Shown here: positions 45,153 through 63,380 of the stretch, one piece after another
Layout of the letters: each line of letters begins with the position of its first letter
How positions within the stretch are numbered: the first letter of the stretch is position 1
Assembly (NCBI GenBank): GCA_964016885.1
Contig: OZ024747.1
Span: forward strand, 73,842,001 to 73,906,000
Direction: 5' to 3'
DNA: 64,000 bases
From: Eledone cirrhosa
Lineage: Eukaryota
Notes under the pieces: generated by a model
Seen by the model: only the letters and a program-made list of their open reading frames with translations
Told to the model about the DNA's origin: nothing
Database searches by the model: none
Translations under genes and position numbers: made by a program

Positions 45153-45183
<31 letters not shown>

Positions 45184-45188
<5 letters not shown>

Positions 45189-45650
45189 TAAAATAACAGA
45201 TTACAGTTTAAGCAAAGAATCGCTGCTTTCACCCTTAAAGGGATTTCTGAAACTAAAAAAGTCAATCTGTGAACGCAGAAGTATATATTAAAAAAAACGC
45301 TGCAACCGAAAGAAGACAGGAAGACGATACTTTGGTTCGTGGAAGCGTTCCCTGGTAAATCTTTGGATTTTAGTCTTCAAATTTATTACTATATATATAT
45401 ATATAGTAATAATAATTGTTTCTACTTTAGGCACAATGCCAGCAATTACCCAGTGCATTACTGGTACTTTAATTTATCGACCCCGTAAGGATGAAAGGCA
45501 AAGTTAACCTCGGCGGGATTTGAACTCAGAATGTAAATGATGTAACTATGCTAGAAAGCATGGCGTCCGATCCTCTACCGATACTGCCAATTCACCGATA
45601 AGGGTGAAAGCAGCGATCTCTGCTTAAACTTTAATCTGTTATTTTAATAT
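45184..45650. mobile_element. Rearranged copy of the 56089-56430 fold-back family with a nested SINE
   Basis: 45184-45350 matches 56090-56250; tail end at 45368-45392; SINE at 45412-45597; partial right arm at 45599-45650. Confidence 0.8.
45412..45597 (-). mobile_element. SINE family A copy
   Basis: Reverse complement of the consensus. Confidence 0.85.
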
Positions 45651-45914
45651 ATATATATATATATGTGTGTGTGTTCCTTCATTCACGCACAAGGCGCTAA
45701 GGTACCCATGTATTGTCCAACCAAATGCCAGTGTGGTTCAATGGCGGGTTAATAAATTAACGAGCCAGAACAAATATAAACAAGGTTTAGCAAATATATA
45801 TATATATATATATATATTAGTTCTAACGCATCTCATGCTTAAACTTGCTCACGGTTTTTTTCTTTTTGGGGGTTTTCCAGGCGCAGTTGCCTCCAGGCCG
45901 AAGAGGGCAAATTG

Positions 45915-49476: not shown

Positions 49477-49527
49477 AGATTCCTGATGATTTCTAATGAA
49501 TGAAACAGTTCTAGTGCTGTAGAATCT
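49477..49527 (+). ncRNA. Type I hammerhead ribozyme motif
   Basis: Stem I AGATTC/GAATCT; core CTGATGA; stem II t-TTC-taat-GAA-t; GAAA; stem III ACAG/CTGT; GTA cleavage triplet (cut after 49521). Confidence 0.75.
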
Positions 49528-50002: not shown

Positions 50003-53000
50003 CACAGGCTGACAGGCTTTGTTACTGGCACCATCACTCCCGCAACAACCACCGGCACCATCACTCCCGCAACCACCACCGGCACCATCACTCCCGCAAC
50101 CACCACCGGCACCATTACTCCCGCAACCACCACCGGCACCATCACTCCCGCAACCACCACCGGCACCATCACTCCCGCAACCACCACTGGCACCATCACT
50201 CCCGCAACCACCACCGGCACCATCACTCCCGCAACCACCACCTGCACCATCACTCCCGCAACCACCACCGGCACCATTACTCCCGCAACCACCACCGGCA
50301 CCATCACTCCCGCAACCACCACCGGCACCATCACTCCCGCAACCACCACCGGCACCATCACTCCCGCAACCACCACTGGCACCATCACTCCCGCAACCAC
50401 CACCGGCACCATCACTCCCGCAACCACCACCGGCACCATCACTCCCGCAACCACCACTGGCACCATCACTCCCGCAACCACCACCTGCACCATCACTCCC
50501 GCAACCACCACCTGCACCATCACTCCCGCAACCACCACCGGCACCATCACTCCCGCAACCACCACCTGCACCATCACTCCCGCAACCACCACCTGCACCA
50601 TCACTCCCGCAACCACCACCGGCACCATCACTCCCGCAACCACCACTGGCACCATCACTCCCGCAACCACCACTGGCACCATCACTCCCGCAACCACCAC
50701 CTGCACCATCACTCCCTCAACCACCACCTGCACCATCACTCCCGCAACCACCACCGGCACCATCACTCCCGCAACCACCACCGGCACCATTACTCCCGCA
50801 ACCACCACCTGCACCATCACTCCCGCAACCACCACCGGCACCATCACTCCCGCAACCACCACCGGCACCATCACTCCCGCAACCACCACCTGCACCATCA
50901 CTCCCGCAACCACCACCTGCACCATTACTCCCGCAACCACCACCGGCACCATCACTCCCGCAACCACCACCTGCACCATCACTCCCGCAACCACCACCTG
51001 CACCATCACTCCCGCAACCACCACCGGCACCATCACTCCCGCAACCACCACCGGCACCATTACTCCCGCAACCACCACCTGCACCATCACTCCCGCAACC
51101 ACCACCGGCACCATCACTCCCGCAACCACCACCGGCACCATTACTCCCGCAACCACCACCGGCACCATCACTCCCGCAACCACCACAGGCACCATCACTC
51201 CCGCAACCACCACCGGCACCATCACTCCCGCAACCACCACCTGCACCATCACTCCCGCAACCACCACCGGCACCATTACTCCCGCAACCACCACCTGCAC
51301 CATTACTCCCGCAACCACCACCGGCACCATTACTCCCGCAACCACCACCGGCACCATCACTCCCGCAACCACCACCGGCACCATTACTCCCGCAACCACC
51401 ACCGGCACCATCACTCCCGCAACCACCACTGGCACCATCACTCCCGCAACCACCACCTGCACCATCACTCCCGCAACCACCACCTGCACCATCACTCCCG
51501 CAACCACCACCGGCACCATCACTCCCGCAACCACCACCTGCACCATTACTCCCGCAACCACCACCGGCACCATCACTCCCGCAACCACCACCGGCACCAT
51601 CACTCCCGCAACCACCACTGGCACCATCACTCCCGCAACCACCACCGGCACCATCACTCCCGCAACCACCACCTGCACCATCACTCCCGCAACCACCACC
51701 TGCACCATCACTCCCGCAACCACCACCGGCACCATCACTCCCGCAACCACCACCGGCACCATTACTCCCGCAACCACCACCTGCACCATCACTCCCGCAA
51801 CCACCACCGGCACCATCACTCCCGCAACCACCACTGGCACCATCACTCCCGCAACCACCACCGGCACCATCACTCCCGCAACCACCACCTGCACCATCAC
51901 TCCCGCAACCACCACCTGCACCATTACTCCCGCAACCACCACTGGCACCATCACTCCCGCAACCACCACCGGCACCATCACTCCCGCAACCACCACCTGC
52001 ACCATCACTCCCGCAACCACCACCGGCACCATCACTCCCGCAACCACCACCTGCACCATTACTCCCGCAACCACCACTGGCACCATCACTCCCGCAACCA
52101 CCACCGGCACCATCACTCCCGCAACCACCACCTGCACCATCACTCCCGCAACCACCACCGGCACCATTACTCCCGCAACCACCACCGGCACCATCACTCC
52201 CGCAACCACCACCGGCACCATCACTCCCGCAACCACCACCGGCACCATCACTCCCGCAACCACCACCGGCATCATCACTCCCGCAACCACCACCGGCACC
52301 ATCACTCCCGCAACCACCACCGGCACCATCACTCCCGCAACCACCACCGGCACCATCACTCCCGCAACCACCACCGGCACCATCACTCCCGCAACCACCA
52401 CCTGCACCATTACTCCCGCAACCACCACCGGCACCATCACTCCCGCAACCACCACCGGCACCATCACTCCCGCAACCACCACTGGCACCATCACTCCCGC
52501 AACCACCACCGGCACCATCACTCCCGCAACCACCACCTGCACCATCACTCCCGCAACCACCACCTGCACCATCACTCCCGCAACCACCACCGGCACCATC
52601 ACTCCCGCAACCACCACCGGCACCATTACTCCCGCAACCACCACCTGCACCATCACTCCCGCAACCACCACCGGCACCATCACTCCCGCAACCACCACCG
52701 GCACCATCACTCCCGCAACCACCACCTGCACCATCACTCCCGCAACCACCACCGGCACCATTACTCCCGGAACCACCACCTGCACCATTACTCCCGCAAC
52801 CACCACCGGCACCATCACTCCCGCAACCACCACCTGCACCATCACTCCCGCAACCACCACCTGCACCATCACTCCCGCAACCACCACCGGCACCATCACT
52901 CCCGCAACCACCACCGGCACCATTACTCCCGCAACCACCACCTGCACCATCACTCCCGCAACCACCACCGGCACCATCACTCCCGCAACCACCACCGGCA

Positions 53001-55570
53001 CCATTACTCCCGCAACCACCACCGGCACCATCACTCCCGCAACCACCACCTGCACCATCACTCCCGCAACCACCACCGGCACCATCACTCCCGCAACCAC
53101 CACCGGCACCATCACTCCCGCAACCACCACCTGCACCATCACTCCCGCAACCACCACCGGCACCATTACTCCCGCAACCACCACCTGCACCATTACTCCC
53201 GCAACCACCACCGGCACCATTACTCCCGCAACCACCACCGGCACCATCACTCCCGCAACCACCACCGGCACCATTACTCCCGCAACCACCACCGGCACCA
53301 TCACTCCCGCAACCACCACTGGCACCATCACTCCCGCAACCACCACCTGCACCATCACTCCCGCAACCACCACCTGCACCATCACTCCCGCAACCACCAC
53401 CGGCACCATCACTCCCGCAACCACCACCTGCACCATTACTCCCGCAACCACCAGCGGCACCATCACTCCCGCAACCACCACCGGCACCATCACTCCCGCA
53501 ACCACCACTGGCACCATCACTCCCGCAACCACCACCGGCACCATCACTCCCGCAACCACCACCTGCACCATCACTCCCGCAACCACCACCTGCACCATCA
53601 CTCCCGCAACCACCACCGGCACCATCACTCCCGCAACCACCACCGGCACCATTACTCCCGCAACCACCACCTGCACCATCACTCCCGCAACCACCACCGG
53701 CACCATCACTCCCGCAACCACCACTGGCACCATCACTCCCGCAACCACCACCGGCACCATCACTCCCGCAACCACCACCTGCACCATCACTCCCGCAACC
53801 ACCACCTGCACCATTACTCCCGCAACCACCACTGGCACCATCACTCCCGCAACCACCACCGGCACCATCACTCCCGCAACCACCACCTGCACCATCACTC
53901 CCGCAACCACCACCGGCACCATCACTCCCGCAACCACCACCTGCACCATTACTCCCGCAACCACCACTGGCACCATCACTCCCGCAACCACCACCGGCAC
54001 CATCACTCCCGCAACCACCACCTGCACCATCACTCCCGCAACCACCACCGGCACCATTACTCCCGCAACCACCACCGGCACCATCACTCCCGCAACCACC
54101 ACCGGCACCATCACTCCCGCAACCACCACCGGTACCATCACTCCCGCAACCACCACCGGCACCATCACTCCCGCAACCACCACCGGCACCATCACTCCCG
54201 CAACCACCACCGGCACCATCACTCCCGCAACCACCACCGGCACCATCACTCCCGCAACCACCACCGGCACCATTACTCCCGCAACCACCACCGGCACCAT
54301 CACTCCCGCAACCACCACCGGCACCATTACTCCCGCAACCACCACTGGCACCATCACTCCCGCAACCACCACCGGCACCATTACTCCCGCAACCACCACC
54401 GGCACCATCACTCCCGCAACCACCACCGGCACCATTACTCCCGCAACCACCACCGGCACCATCACTCGCGCAACCACCACCTGCACCATCACTCCCGCAA
54501 CCACCACCTGCACCATCACTCCCGCAACCACCACCGGCACCATCACTCCCGCAACCACCACCTGCACCATCACTCCCGCAACCACCACCGGCACCATTAC
54601 TCCCGCAACCACCACCGGCACCATCACTCCCGCAACCACCACCGGCACCATCACTCCCGCAACCACCACCGGCACCATCACTCCCGCAACCACCACCGGC
54701 ACCATCACTCCCGCAACCTCCACCGGCACCATTACTCCCGCAACCACCACCGGCACCATCACTCCCGCAACCACCACCTGCACCATCACTCCCGCAACCA
54801 CCACCTGCACCATCACTCCCGCAACCACCACCGGCACCATCACTCCCGCAACCACCACCGGCACCATCACTCCCGCAACCACCACCGGCACCATCACTCC
54901 CGCAACCACCACCTGCACCATCACTCCCGCAACCACCACCGGCACCATCACTCCCGCAACCACCACCGGCACCATTACTCCCGCAACCAACACCGGCACC
55001 ATCACTCCCGCAACCACCACCGGCACCATCACTCCCGCAACCACCACTGGCACCATCACTCCCGCAACCACCACCGGCACCATCACTCCCGCAACCACCA
55101 CCTGCACCATCACTCCCGCAACCACCACCGGCACCATTACTCCCGCAACCACCACCGGCACCATCACTCCCGCAACCACCACCGGCACCATCACTCCCGC
55201 AACCACCACTGGCACCATCACTCCCGCAACCACCACCGGCACCATCACTCCCGCAACCACCACCGGCACCATCACTCCCGCAACCACCACCGGCACCATC
55301 ACTCCCGCAACCACCACTGGCACCATCACTCCCGCAACCACCACCGGCACCATTACTCCCGCAACCATCACTCCCGCAACCACCACCGGCACCATCACTC
55401 CCGCAACCACCACCTGCACCATCACTCCCGCAACCACCACCGGCAACATCACTCCCGCAACCACCACCTGCACCATCACTCCCGCAACCACCACCTGCAC
55501 CATTACTCCCGCAACCACCACCTGCACCATAACTACCGAAATCATCACTACTACAATTGTTACTCTATAA
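50003..55570 (+). CDS. Possible mucin-like Thr/Pro-rich exon, (TTT[G/C]TITPA)n
   Basis: Stop-free from 50003 to TAA at 55568-55570, no ATG; ATC/ATT, ACC/ACT/ACA and GGC/GGT variants are silent in this frame; possible CAG acceptors ending at 50007 and 50015. Confidence 0.3.
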   Translation, partial: HRLTGFVTGTITPATTTGTITPATTTGTITPATTTGTITPATTTGTITPATTTGTITPATTTGTITPATTTGTITPATTTCTITPATTTGTITPATTTGTITPATTTGTITPATTTGTITPATTTGTITPATTTGTITPATTTGTITPATTTGTITPATTTCTITPATTTCTITPATTTGTITPATTTCTITPATTTCTITPATTTGTITPATTTGTITPATTTGTITPATTTCTITPSTTTCTITPATTTGTITPATTTGTITPATTTCTITPATTTGTITPATTTGTITPATTTCTITPATTTCTITPATTTGTITPATTTCTITPATTTCTITPATTTGTITPATTTGTITPATTTCTITPATTTGTITPATTTGTITPATTTGTITPATTTGTITPATTTGTITPATTTCTITPATTTGTITPATTTCTITPATTTGTITPATTTGTITPATTTGTITPATTTGTITPATTTGTITPATTTCTITPATTTCTITPATTTGTITPATTTCTITPATTTGTITPATTTGTITPATTTGTITPATTTGTITPATTTCTITPATTTCTITPATTTGTITPATTTGTITPATTTCTITPATTTGTITPATTTGTITPATTTGTITPATTTCTITPATTTCTITPATTTGTITPATTTGTITPATTTCTITPATTTGTITPATTTCTITPATTTGTITPATTTGTITPATTTCTITPATTTGTITPATTTGTITPATTTGTITPATTTGTITPATTTGIITPATTTGTITPATTTGTITPATTTGTITPATTTGTITPATTTCTITPATTTGTITPATTTGTITPATTTGTITPATTTGTITPATTTCTITPATTTCTITPATTTGTITPATTTGTITPATTTCTITPATTTGTITPATTTGTITPATTTCTITPATTTGTITPGTTTCTITPATTTGTITPATTTCTITPATTTCTITPATTTGTITPATTTGTITPATTTCTITPATTTGTITPATTTGTITPATTTGTITPATTTCTITPATTTGTITPATTTGTITPATTTCTITPATTTGTITPATTTCTITPATTTGTITPATTTGTITPATTTGTITPATTTGTITPATTTGTITPATTTCTITPATTTCTITPATTTGTITPATTTCTITPATTSGTITPATTTGTITPATTTGTITPATTTGTITPATTTCTITPATTTCTITPATTTGTITPATTTGTITPATTTCTITPATTTGTITPATTTGTITPATTTGTITPATTTCTITPATTTCTITPATTTGTITPATTTGTITPATTTCTITPATTTGTITPATTTCTITPATTTGTITPATTTGTITPATTTCTITPATTTGTITPATTTGTITPATTTGTITPATTTGTITPATTTGTITPATTTGTITPATTTGTITPATTTGTITPATTTGTITPATTTGTITPATTTGTITPATTTGTITPATTTGTITPATTTGTITPATTTGTITPATTTGTITRATTTCTITPATTTCTITPATTTGTITPATTTCTITPATTTGTITPATTTGTITPATTTGTITPATTTGTITPATTTGTITPATSTGTITPATTTGTITPATTTCTITPATTTCTITPATTTGTITPATTTGTITPATTTGTITPATTTCTITPATTTGTITPATTTGTITPATNTGTITPATTTGTITPATTTGTITPATTTGTITPATTTCTITPATTTGTITPATTTGTITPATTTGTITPATTTGTITPATTTGTITPATTTGTITPATTTGTITPATTTGTITPATTTGTITPATITPATTTGTITPATTTCTITPATTTGNITPATTTCTITPATTTCTITPATTTCTITTEIITTTIVTL
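50024..55530 (+). repeat. 27-bp tandem array (ACCACCACCGGCACCATCACTCCCGCA)n, about 204 units
   Basis: Strict 27-bp period; only one length variant (in-frame, near 55360). Confidence 0.97.
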
Positions 55571-56042: not shown

Positions 56043-56088
<46 letters not shown>

Positions 56089-56094
<6 letters not shown>

Positions 56095-56430
56095 TAAAAT
56101 AACAGATTAAAGTTTAAGCAAAGAATTGCTGCTTTCACCCTTAACGGGATATTCTGAAACTAACAAAGTCAATCTGTAAACGCAGAAGTGGATATTTAAA
56201 AAAACGTTGCAACCGAAGGAAGACAGGAAGACGATACTTTGGTTCGTGGAACCAAATTGACTTTGTTAGTTTCAGAAGATCCCGTTAAGGGTGAAAGCAG
56301 CGATTCTTTGCTTAAACTTTAATCTGTTATTTTAATAAATATTTGGTCTACGGTTCTTATATATTTGATATATATTTATCCTTATAGAGCCCTCTTTGCA
56401 TTTTAGTCTTCAAATTTATTATTATTACTA
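56089..56430 (+). mobile_element. Fold-back element (~85-bp arms plus ~90-bp tail) carrying a hammerhead-like fold
   Basis: 56089-56173 is the reverse complement of 56256-56341; flanked by (TA)n; second copy at 45184. Confidence 0.8.
56268..56318 (+). ncRNA. Variant type I hammerhead fold (core CAGAAGA)
   Basis: Stem I AGTTT/AAACT; CAGAAGA; stem II t-CCC-gttaa-GGG-t; GAAA; stem III AGCA/TGCT; CTT triplet; AATAAA at 56334. Confidence 0.55.
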
Positions 56431-56441
56431 TATATATATAT

Positions 56442-59137: not shown

Positions 59138-59585
59138 GAATATACATCATATATATATACACATCAAATATACAGCACACATCATATATACACATCGAAT
59201 ATACAGCACATATCATACATACACATCGAATATACAGCAGACATCATATATACACATCGAATATACAGCACATATCATATATACATATCGAATATACAGC
59301 AGACATATATACACATCGAATATACAGCACATATCATATATACACATCGAATATACAGCATATATCATATATACACATCAAATATACAGCACACATCATG
59401 TATACACATAGAATATACAGCAGACATCATATATACACATCAAATATACAGCACACATCATGTATACATATCGAATATACAGCATACATTATATATACAC
59501 ATCGAATATACAGCACACATCATGTATACATATCGAATATACAGCATACATCATATATACATATCGAATATACAGCACATATCAT
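59138..59585. repeat. 31-bp minisatellite (ACACATCGAATATACAGCACATATCATATAT)n, about 14 units
   Basis: Direct periodicity. Confidence 0.92.
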
Positions 59586-60649: not shown

Positions 60650-62636
60650 AGTTACAGTAGTGTGAGGGGTGTTATAGTAGAGTGAAAGGGGGGGCGTGTT
60701 ATAGTAGAGTGAAAGGTGGGGGTGTTATAGTAGTGTTAGGGGTGGAGGGGTTTTATAGTAATGTGAAGGTGGAGGGTATTATGGTAGCGTGAAGACGGCG
60801 GGGTGTTATAGTAGAGTGAAAGGTGGAGGGCAGCTAGAGTAAAGTGAAAGGTGGAGGGGTGTTATAGTAGAGTGAAAGGTGGAGGGGAGCTAGAGTAAAG
60901 TGAAAGGTGGAGAGGGGGTTATAGTAGAGTGGAAGGTGGAGGGGTGTTATAGTAGAGTGAAAGGTGGAGGGATGTTATAGTAGAGTGAAAGGTGGAGGGA
61001 TGTTATAGTAGAGTGAAAGGTGGAGAGGATGTTATAGTAGAGTGAAAGGTGGAGAGGATGTTATAGTAGAGTGAAAGGTGGAGGGATGTTATAGTAGAGT
61101 GAAAGGTGGAGAGGATGTTATAGTAGAGTGAAAGGTGGAGGGATGTTATAGTAGAGTGAAAGGTGGAGAGGATGTTATAGTAGAGTGAAAGGTGGAGGGA
61201 TGTTATAGTAGAGTGAAAGGTGGAGAGGATGTTATAGTAGAGTGAAAGGTGGAGAGGATGTTATAGTAGAGTGAAAGGTGGAGAGGATGTTATAGTAGAG
61301 TGAAAGGTGGAGGGCAGCTAGAGTAAAGTGAAAGGTGGAGGGGTGTTATAGTAGAGTGAAAGGTGGAGGGGAGCTAGAGTAAAGTGAAAGGTGGAGAGGG
61401 GGTTATAGTAGAGTGGAAGGTGGAGGGGTGTTATAGTAGAGTGAAAGGTGGAGGGATGTTATAGTAGAGTGAAAGGTGGAGGGATGTTATAGTAGAGTGA
61501 AAGGTGGAGAGGATGTTATAGTAGAGTGAAAGGTGGAGGGATGTTATAGTAGAGTGAAAGGTGGAGAGGATGTTATAGTAGAGTGAAAGGTGGAGGGATG
61601 TTATAGTAGAGTGAAAGGTGGAGAGGATGTTATAGTAGAGTGAAAGGTGGAGGGATGTTATAGTAGAGTGAAAGGTGGAGGGATGTTATAGTAGAGTGAA
61701 AGGTGGAGAGGATGTTATAGTAGAGTGAAAGGTGGAGGGATGTTATAGTAGAGTGAAAGGTGGAGAGGATGTTATAGTAGAGTGAAAGGTGGAGAGGATG
61801 TTATAGTAGAGTGAAAGGTGGAGAGGATGTTATAGTAGAGTGAAAGGTGGAGGGCAGCTAGAGTAAAGTGAAAGGTGGAGGGGTGTTATAGTAGAGTGAA
61901 AGGTGGAGGGGAGCTAGAGTAAAGTGAAAGGTGGAGAGGTGGTTATAGTAGAGTGGAAGGTGGAGGGGTGTTATAGTAGAGTGAAAGGTGGAGGGATGTT
62001 ATAGTAGAGTGAAAGGTGGAGGGATGTTATAGTAGAGTGAAAGGTGGAGAGGATGTTATAGTAGAGTGAAAGGTGGAGGGATGTTATAGTAGAGTGAAAG
62101 GTGGAGAGGATGTTATAGTAGAGTGAAAGGTGGAGGGATGTTATAGTAGAGTGAAAGGTGGAGAGGATGTTATAGTAGAGTGAAAGGTGGAGGGATGTTA
62201 TAGTAGAGTGAAAGGTGGAGGGATGTTATAGTAGAGTGAAAGGTGGAGAGGATGTTATAGTAGAGTGAAAGGTGGAGGGATGTTATAGTAGAGTGAAAGG
62301 TGGAGAGGATGTTATAGTAGAGTGAAAGGTGGAGAGGATGTTATAGTAGAGTGAAAGGTGGAGAGGATGTTATAGTAGAGTGAAAGGTGGAGAGGATGTT
62401 ATAGTAGAGTGAAAGGTGGAGAGGATGTTATAGTAGAGTGAAAGGTGGAGAGGATGTTATAGTAGAGTGAAAGGTGGAGGGATGTTATAGTAGAGTGAAA
62501 GGTGGAGAGGATGTTATAGTAGAGTGAAAGGTAGAGAGGATGTTATAGTAGAGTGAAAGGTGGAGGGATGTTATAGTAGAGTGAAAGGTGGAGAGGATGT
62601 TATAGTAGAGTGAAAGGTGGAGAGGATGTTATAGTA
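60650..62636. repeat. 28/29-bp minisatellite (GTTATAGTAGAGTGAAAGGTGGAG[A]GGAT)n with a higher-order repeat
   Basis: Direct periodicity; variant CAGCTAGAGTAAAGTG at about 60831, 61315 and 61855. Confidence 0.95.
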
Positions 62637-63185: not shown

Positions 63186-63189
<4 letters not shown>

Positions 63190-63380
63190 GGAACGAGTAG
63201 GACCCCGACGGCTGAGCTCAAGCCGTTTCGACGGCTAATTAGTCCAGAATTAGCCGTCGAAACGGCTTGAGCTCAGCCGTCTGTGTCCTACTCGTTCCTA
63301 TTACCCACTCTACTACCCTAAGTATTGAGTACTTTGGTGCGTTATGGTCCACCTGGTTCCTTACCACATTTCCTTCGTTA
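63186..63380 (+). mobile_element. Fold-back mini element containing the 3' half of a hammerhead fold
   Basis: 63186-63302 is palindromic; the right arm reads GAAAC-GGCT-tgagctc-AGCC-GTC; tail to 63380; (TA)n flanks. Confidence 0.8.

Follow-up and report, generated by a model that had tools for sequence, protein, structure and literature searches.

An inverted repeat at positions 56089 to 56430 of the window (the whole 64,000-nucleotide stretch of the Eledone cirrhosa genome analyzed here) contains what reads as a type I hammerhead ribozyme with A instead of U at position 4 of its core. The locus raises three questions: what the inverted structure is, whether the odd base belongs to a family or to one decayed copy, and whether a hammerhead built in this way would still cut. 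Published work is cited below from the portions of each paper that were covered.

An inverted pair of retroelement ends

The head-to-head junction at 56089..56430 consists of two 5'-truncated 3' ends of one Hydra-clade Penelope-like retroelement, whose family we call family A, flanked by (TA)n (Table 1). Positions 56087-56173 pair with 56256-56342 over 87 bp with 2 mismatches, and the predicted energy of this duplex is -145.6 kcal/mol (z -21.9), a value equalled by 0 of 200 shuffles. Among family A loci, junction positions vary freely between insertions, 43 of 75 fold-back junction pairs combine a long with a short end, and at least 16 head-to-head pairs spaced ≤5.5 kb were counted by eye among the first 100 places. 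Over 42 pairs, rare variants were common to both arms of the same insertion in 8 of 105 cases, whereas random partners shared 0 of 146, which fits copying of the two arms from a single RNA. Inverted 5'-truncated copies with a tail at one end only are a known insertion form of Penelope-like elements, and Hydra elements prefer (TA)n targets (Craig 2021, PMC8557442). Given this known geometry, the variable junctions and the variants shared between arms, the fold-back itself is ordinary insertion debris. The preliminary description, made from the letters alone, had taken it for a fold-back family, a label that does not hold for two truncated ends with variable junctions. It had also proposed that the antisense arm could sequester the ribozyme in long transcripts; a duplex is indeed expected in any read-through transcript, although it is a by-product of the insertion geometry.

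Several other repeats were found in the window. A long GC-rich 27-nt minisatellite spans 50027-55538 (about 198 copies at 50027-55371, 96% matches), and an array related to it lies at about 16563-17579. At 60664-62636 lies a purine-rich minisatellite of 28-nt units (about 70 copies), and at 59153-59585 an array of 31-nt units.

Table 1 Features of the window and of related loci
Feature	Position	Strand	Description and basis
Left arm, 5'-truncated 3' end	56087..56251	-	-136 to +29 versus predicted cut; 97% identity to full-length L041; terminus is the short end, in (TA)n (alignment to L041)
Right arm, 5'-truncated 3' end	56253..56431	+	About -61 to +118; 96.8% identity to L041; terminus is the long end
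Left-arm hammerhead copy	56111..56161	-	Family A4; private G8U at 56151, and at 56127 a CpG change in loop III (arm comparison)
Type I hammerhead motif, A4, U10.1-U11.1, G15.2-C16.2, U17	56268..56318	+	Sequence, motif scans
Distal helix I strand remnant and 7-nt bulge	56256..56267	+	9-bp distal helix with +6 to +14 in full copies
Tail of about 89 nt, one arm only	56343..56431	+	Runs on to ORF start in tandem copies
(TA)n target microsatellite, left flank	56051..56088	.	Sequence; shorter run at about 56428-56441
Second family A insertion	45181..45405	-	Minus arm 45181-45359 (G8 deleted), plus-strand tail fragment 45360-45405
Third family A copy, short	45595..45654	+	Begins within helix II; comparison to family
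Canonical CUGAUGA type I hammerhead, U-U closed, other family	49477-49527	+	Motif scan; one of a related group in the genome
Family B copies	23778-23975, 63186-63380 (window); L161:4960-5138; L174; L184

The parent element

A whole unit of family A was found at locus L041, where a pLTR, a 709-codon ORF, a 0.97-kb 3' UTR and the hammerhead are contained in the 3,259 nt between one cut site and the next; longer family A copies extend into the ORF. The 709-aa product combines a reverse transcriptase (RT; YRDD at 346) with a C-terminal GIY-YIG endonuclease (VY...YIG at 584) and carries RWR at 37, DKT at 115, a CxCx5C linker at 564, CxxC at 662 and CxH at 690. It has 480 homologs at an E value of ≤1e-20 among 7,991 scored, and a Pfam scan of three partial frames returned 0 families. 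The diagnostic set published for the Hydra clade comprises an RWK motif, DKT, the CxCx5C linker, and CxxC and CxH near the endonuclease end (Craig 2021, PMC8557442), and the L041 protein differs from it by having RWR where the definition names RWK. The preference for (TA)n targets, pLTR tandems, an inverted 5'-truncated copy and a tail at one end are all present in family A. Judged by this diagnostic protein motif set and by its layout, family A is a Hydra-clade Penelope-like element; membership in Naiad was ruled out by the domain order. A pLTR hammerhead is a trait of the clade and not part of its protein-based definition. Its usual place is occupied in family A, but by a noncanonical core (A4). 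A more distant Hydra family (33 to 37% identity to family A) is represented in the window by an inverted pair of endonuclease-domain fragments at 5746-7050.

A hammerhead with A at position 4

As read from the sequence, helix I of the plus-arm motif pairs 56268-72 with 56314-18 (5 bp), the core C3 A4 G5 A6 A7 G8 A9 occupies 56273-79, and helix II (3 bp, with a loop of 5 nt) is closed by U10.1 (56280) facing U11.1 (56292). G12 A13 A14 follow at 56293-95, helix III pairs 56296-300 with 56308-12 (5 bp), and U17 is at 56313, with the predicted cut at 56313/56314 and CUU as the cut triplet. The three helices are thus arranged around the core in type I order, and GAAA is present within 56268-56318, so that the register given in the preliminary description was recovered, together with its A at position 4 (CAGAAGA core) and its U-U closure of helix II, as in the motif at 49477. 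The closure is common in Hydra hammerheads, being shared by 14 of the 26 Hydra rows in Craig File S2 (PMC8557442; counted by eye). C3, G5, A6, G8, A9, G12, A13, A14, the A15.1-U16.1 pair and H17 are present both in the plus arm and in the family majority. The U4 of the CUGA turn is absent, and the inverted arm also departs from the standard core at G8 (G8U). CAGAA does occur, as had been noted, in the inverted arm and in the copy placed at 45184 (here 45181), and G8 is lost in both, by G8U in the former and by deletion in the latter, a loss on which the description was silent.

Rfam gave no hammerhead match at the gathering threshold, nor at an E value of ≤10 over 56200-56400, and the identification therefore rests on the register, the place in the element and homology with Hydra hammerheads. 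In a relaxed scan of the whole family A unit on both strands, with stem II allowed up to 150 nt, this motif was the only hammerhead. The predicted minimum fold (-15.1 kcal/mol) differs from the hammerhead fold (-13.0 kcal/mol), as the predicted minimum of the canonical 49477 motif likewise does from its own hammerhead fold, and the computed energies fail to distinguish the two motifs. In full copies, the distal helix I has a mean pair probability of 0.93. The helices showed no inherited variation within family A, and covariation thus had no power.

The genome is very rich in type I hammerheads: the 628 kb of flanking DNA (L002-L172 flanks) contained at least 10 further families of them with canonical cores.

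A4 is the family consensus

Exact-pattern counts over the 3.0-Gb genome gave 15,362 matches to a 32-mer with the A4 core compared to 141 in which position 4 was C, G or T (position 7 was left free in the non-A search, and reversed-pattern controls gave 0 matches). A4 therefore stands in 15,362 of 15,503 matches, or 99% of those in the exact context. The three other letters are about equally common among the first 100 of the 141 matches (36 T, 26 C and 38 G, by eye), and A4 is carried by young and older haplotype classes alike. In the 628 kb of genome loci, CA cores were confined to family A, the other hammerhead families having CT. No RNA run was among the sequencing runs listed, a result without bearing on expression. 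In contigs of four sequencing runs covering one copy, no letter other than A reached a 5% share at position 4; two of these runs are filed under other organism labels and, being of low depth (6 and 47 records) and possibly representing traces of the same host, are not counted as other species. The change to A4 is natural and fixed in the family and does not reflect decay of one copy, and on this point the preliminary description was right, the family consensus not being CTGA. Two insertions, L058 with three arms and L059 with two, have U at position 4 in every arm, which indicates that the template RNA or the first cDNA was in each case a natural revertant.

A sister family with U4

The nearest family in the genome, family B, shares 50.9% protein identity with family A over 703 residues, and the two group with one public protein with a support of 0.92 in an RT tree of 85 sequences and 4 proteins. 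Its core reads U3 U4 G5 A6 N7 A8 A9, with GAAA, a long helix II and a GUC site, and its 30-mer has 42,637 exact matches in the genome. This is the U3-A8 variant described by Cervera and De la Pena 2014 (PMC4209133). Family B also contains a CAGAA stretch, which was considered as a homolog of the A4 core and rejected, as it forms part of the 3' strand of helix II. With this stretch outside the core, and with a U3-A8 core that has U4, a shared origin of A4 is rejected.

The majority of short family B copies have their starts close to the helix II apex (32 of 57 inside a 9-nt stretch), which may reflect an RT stop, a nuclease cut or an RNA start. Such apex starts, for example at 23913-23916 and 63239-63240 of the window, lead to near-perfect palindromes with gaps of 0 to 20 nt.

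Outside this genome, 53 of 77 Hydra-like loci from metagenomes carried the motif, and the 69 motif matches comprised 62 CT, 1 CC, 0 CA and 6 T-initial cores, A4 being found in 0 of the 63 C3-type cores of these related loci. The cut triplet was GUH in 54 of 54 outside canonical cores compared to CUU in family A. All 26 Hydra rows in Craig File S2 begin with ctga and have U4 and G16.2 throughout, with U17 in 10 of the 26 (by eye) (PMC8557442). The presence of U4 in family B and in outside Hydra elements, together with GUH outside, indicates that A4 and the CUU triplet are derived traits of family A.

Copy ends at the predicted cut

As a proxy for cutting we used the positions at which copies start, given that a cut RNA reverse-transcribed to its end would yield copies starting at +1. 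In family B, 29 of 83 usable matches among the first 100 of 742 started at +1 (by eye; 17 of the 100 were dropped as insertions or deletions), compared to 10.6 to 14.7 expected from simulated uniform breakpoints (P ≤ 1.3e-4). Among copies beginning at the ORF start (60 of 61 matches examined), 3 of 60, or 4 with L349 by eye, were at +1 over a background of 0.26 per position (P = 0.002). This pile-up of copy ends exactly at the predicted cut is a genomic sign of what would be cleavage in vivo.

Family A gave a different picture. Only 4 of 70 usable matches among the first 100 of 3,922 started at +1 (by eye; 30 of the 100 were dropped as indels), with 4.5 to 8.5 expected, and over -2 to +1 the same 70 matches gave 13 starts versus 14.8 to 18.4 expected. 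Such a count is unlikely under an enrichment like that of family B (P = 0.001 to 0.055). Genome-wide start patterns gave 136 matches at +1 and 194 at +4, which become about 117 and 66 after correction for how many of the first 100 matches to each pattern were true breakpoints (by eye). The resulting +1:+4 ratio of 1.8 compares with 1.2 to 2.7 simulated without cutting and, with generic flanks, leaves room for an enrichment of at most about 1.5-fold. Among ORF-start copies (70 of 380 examined), 2 of 70 were compatible with +1 when microhomology was allowed, no different from the 4 of 60 in family B (P = 0.41); this, like the enrichment that the +1:+4 ratio still allows, counts against reading the site as uncut. 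As the pile-up seen in its sister is missing, the hammerhead of family A likely cuts weakly or not at all. The natural core variant inferred in the preliminary description thus stands as far as a natural, family-fixed A4 is concerned, while the genomic cut-site footprint argues against strong ribozyme activity.

Short internal deletions spanning helix III and the cut, from -12 to +4, recur in family A and account for about two-thirds of the first 100 matches to one of the genome-wide start patterns. Many lie between repeated CTTT or GCTT words, and they possibly reflect RT slippage over the hairpin.

Sequence constraint on the 3' end

We compared variant columns in 131 copies from loci chosen irrespective of the motif, considering inherited non-CpG variants. 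Such variants occupied 28 of 238 columns upstream versus 0 of 60 from -46 to +14 (Fisher P = 0.002), and only two were found from -62 to +14, both in the helix I bulge. The downstream tail had inherited variants in 0 of 99 columns. As the tail is as invariant as the motif, the constraint does not single out catalysis, and it may act on the whole 3'-terminal RNA or on a promoter instead. Changes of G8 (377) and G12 (291), compared to the 15,362 matches, are near the 2.4% background. No spreading lineage with a dead G8 was found, the G8 mutants being spread across several haplotypes; G8U made up about 33 of the first 100 of the 377 matches and G12U 15 of the first 100 of the 291 (by eye). In the last helix I pair no compensatory change was seen, the two changes sitting in different copies.

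Comparison with known hammerheads

Family A resembles the Hydra clade in having an RT followed by GIY-YIG, RW(K/R), DKT, the linker, CxxC and CxH, in its (TA)n association, its tandem and inverted truncated insertions and its type I hammerhead near the 3' end (Craig 2021, PMC8557442). It differs from the Hydra rows of the same source in A4 and in a G15.2-C16.2 pair with a CUU triplet in place of G16.2, and from Hydra hammerheads in a 7-nt nonpalindromic loop on helix III. Its 3.26-kb unit, 0.97-kb 3' UTR and 89-nt tail compare with Hydra elements that are generally <3 kb and Naiad tails of 30 to 40 bp (PMC8557442). Nor is it the published Hydra-1_oBim, whose row lists another hammerhead sequence. 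Like the minimal hammerheads of metazoans, it has a type I motif in the pLTR; those forms, however, keep U4 and, their helix III being minimal, are mostly dimer dependent (Cervera and De la Pena 2014, PMC4209133), whereas in family A helix III has 5 bp and helix I is extended. Low activity is reported for metazoan Penelope-like hammerheads in that paper, the covered portions of which do not mention U4A.

Two features of family A have natural parallels, namely a change at position 4, as U4C in a viroid, and the U10.1-U11.1 closure (Perreault 2011, PMC3088659); the text of that paper has 0 matches for U4A. In family A, by contrast, U4A is fixed across >15,000 copies of a mobile family. The viroid U4C had considerably lower activity in vitro, yet it was sufficient in the viroid (Perreault 2011, PMC3088659). 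In a type III hammerhead, mutating single bases of the CUGA turn left low activity, and in pairwise mutagenesis the turn tolerated only a C3-G8 swap (Roberts 2023). The low activity of these single mutants and of U4C in vitro agrees with the copy-end data. Natural contexts are able to rescue core changes that are harmful to engineered ribozymes (Eckert 2023), and the published natural variants U4C and A9U remain functional (Perreault 2011, PMC3088659; Eckert 2023). In the literature covered we found no natural family-fixed U4A core, although earlier cases may exist. What was known already is the kind of element, the inverted structure and the U-U closure; what is new is A4 and the CUU triplet. 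CUU is a poor cleavage triplet.

Competing explanations

We consider it probable that the locus is an inverted pair of truncated Hydra-clade ends whose family-fixed A4 and CUU triplet make for a slow or silent ribozyme, in a family whose spread did not depend on cutting. Priming on (TA)n beyond the motif, at +29 or +118, the element's own RT would have read through the uncut site and copied both arms from one RNA. U4 would have changed to A after the split from family B, and cutting would be largely dispensable for the spread of family A. The fold may have been kept because the 3'-terminal 170 nt or so act as a promoter or as the template end for the RT, and some slow cutting may persist. Conservation of the motif counts against a silent ribozyme, since a long-dead one should have drifted. 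That conservation extends to the other core positions, the three helices and the 9-bp distal helix I, all invariant across lineages, and it speaks for a working natural U4A variant in which contacts between loop II and the helix I bulge rescue the core, cutting goes on at a useful rate and the cut ends are religated or circularized too fast to leave a footprint. That both inherited changes fall in the bulge points the same way, as do the failure of U4 revertants to spread (the 36 T matches above) and the functional U4C and A9U variants already cited. Yet family A lacks the start enrichment at the cut that reaches 2- to 2.7-fold in its sister, A4 is compounded by CUU instead of GUH, a 3-bp helix II and the U-U closure, the published tolerance of the CUGA turn does not extend beyond the C3-G8 swap, and the tail is conserved as strongly as the motif. 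We therefore regard a variant hidden by rapid religation as quite unlikely. A bolder proposal, that of a working U4A/CUU hammerhead rescued by distal contacts, fixed in >15,000 copies and tuned to be slow for RT read-through, with family B as its on/off partner, is unlikely as well.

The fold-back could instead be a self-contained family, either MITE-like or an antisense-regulated unit, whose inverted arm serves to silence the ribozyme. In read-through RNA, the folding model predicts that the motif would be buried in the 87-bp duplex, and fold-backs are common, as the head-to-head pairs counted above illustrate. This explanation is very improbable, given that arm lengths and junctions differ with each insertion, the arms measuring anything between tens of bases and kilobases and in many cases reaching into the ORF, that the whole 256-nt query was matched by only 7 of 40 scored candidates (83 to 100%, the window itself included), and that inverted 5'-truncated copies are a described Penelope-like by-product (Craig 2021, PMC8557442). 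A MITE or fold-back DNA transposon was rejected, as the terminal inverted repeats are neither fixed nor uniform and the arms are retroelement 3' ends. It is hardly plausible at all that the motif is a chance look-alike or wrongly registered, with the true ribozyme elsewhere in the element. The silence of Rfam and a predicted minimum other than the hammerhead fold would agree with such an error, for which the CAGAA stretch of family B, which proved to be noncore, offers a precedent. But no other hammerhead exists in the unit on either strand under the relaxed scan, the position matches that of Hydra hammerheads, the layout with a short, U-U-closed helix II is common to other hammerhead families of this genome, and even for the canonical 49477 motif the hammerhead is not the fold of minimum energy.

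Implications

The function of hammerheads in endonuclease-bearing Penelope-like elements is still unclear (Craig 2021, PMC8557442). Here, two sister families that both became highly abundant (exact motif matches: 15,362 for A and 42,637 for B) differ in that the one with U4 has a pile-up of copy ends and the one with A4 has none. If the A4 form is inactive, cutting would be real in vivo and yet unneeded for spread, and mapping copy ends would reveal ribozyme activity from the genome alone. If the A4 form cuts, a core base supposed to be fixed would need relaxing in ribozyme searches, which miss family A, and were the working variant true, families A and B would constitute a natural on/off pair bearing on the role of the hammerhead in Penelope-like elements.
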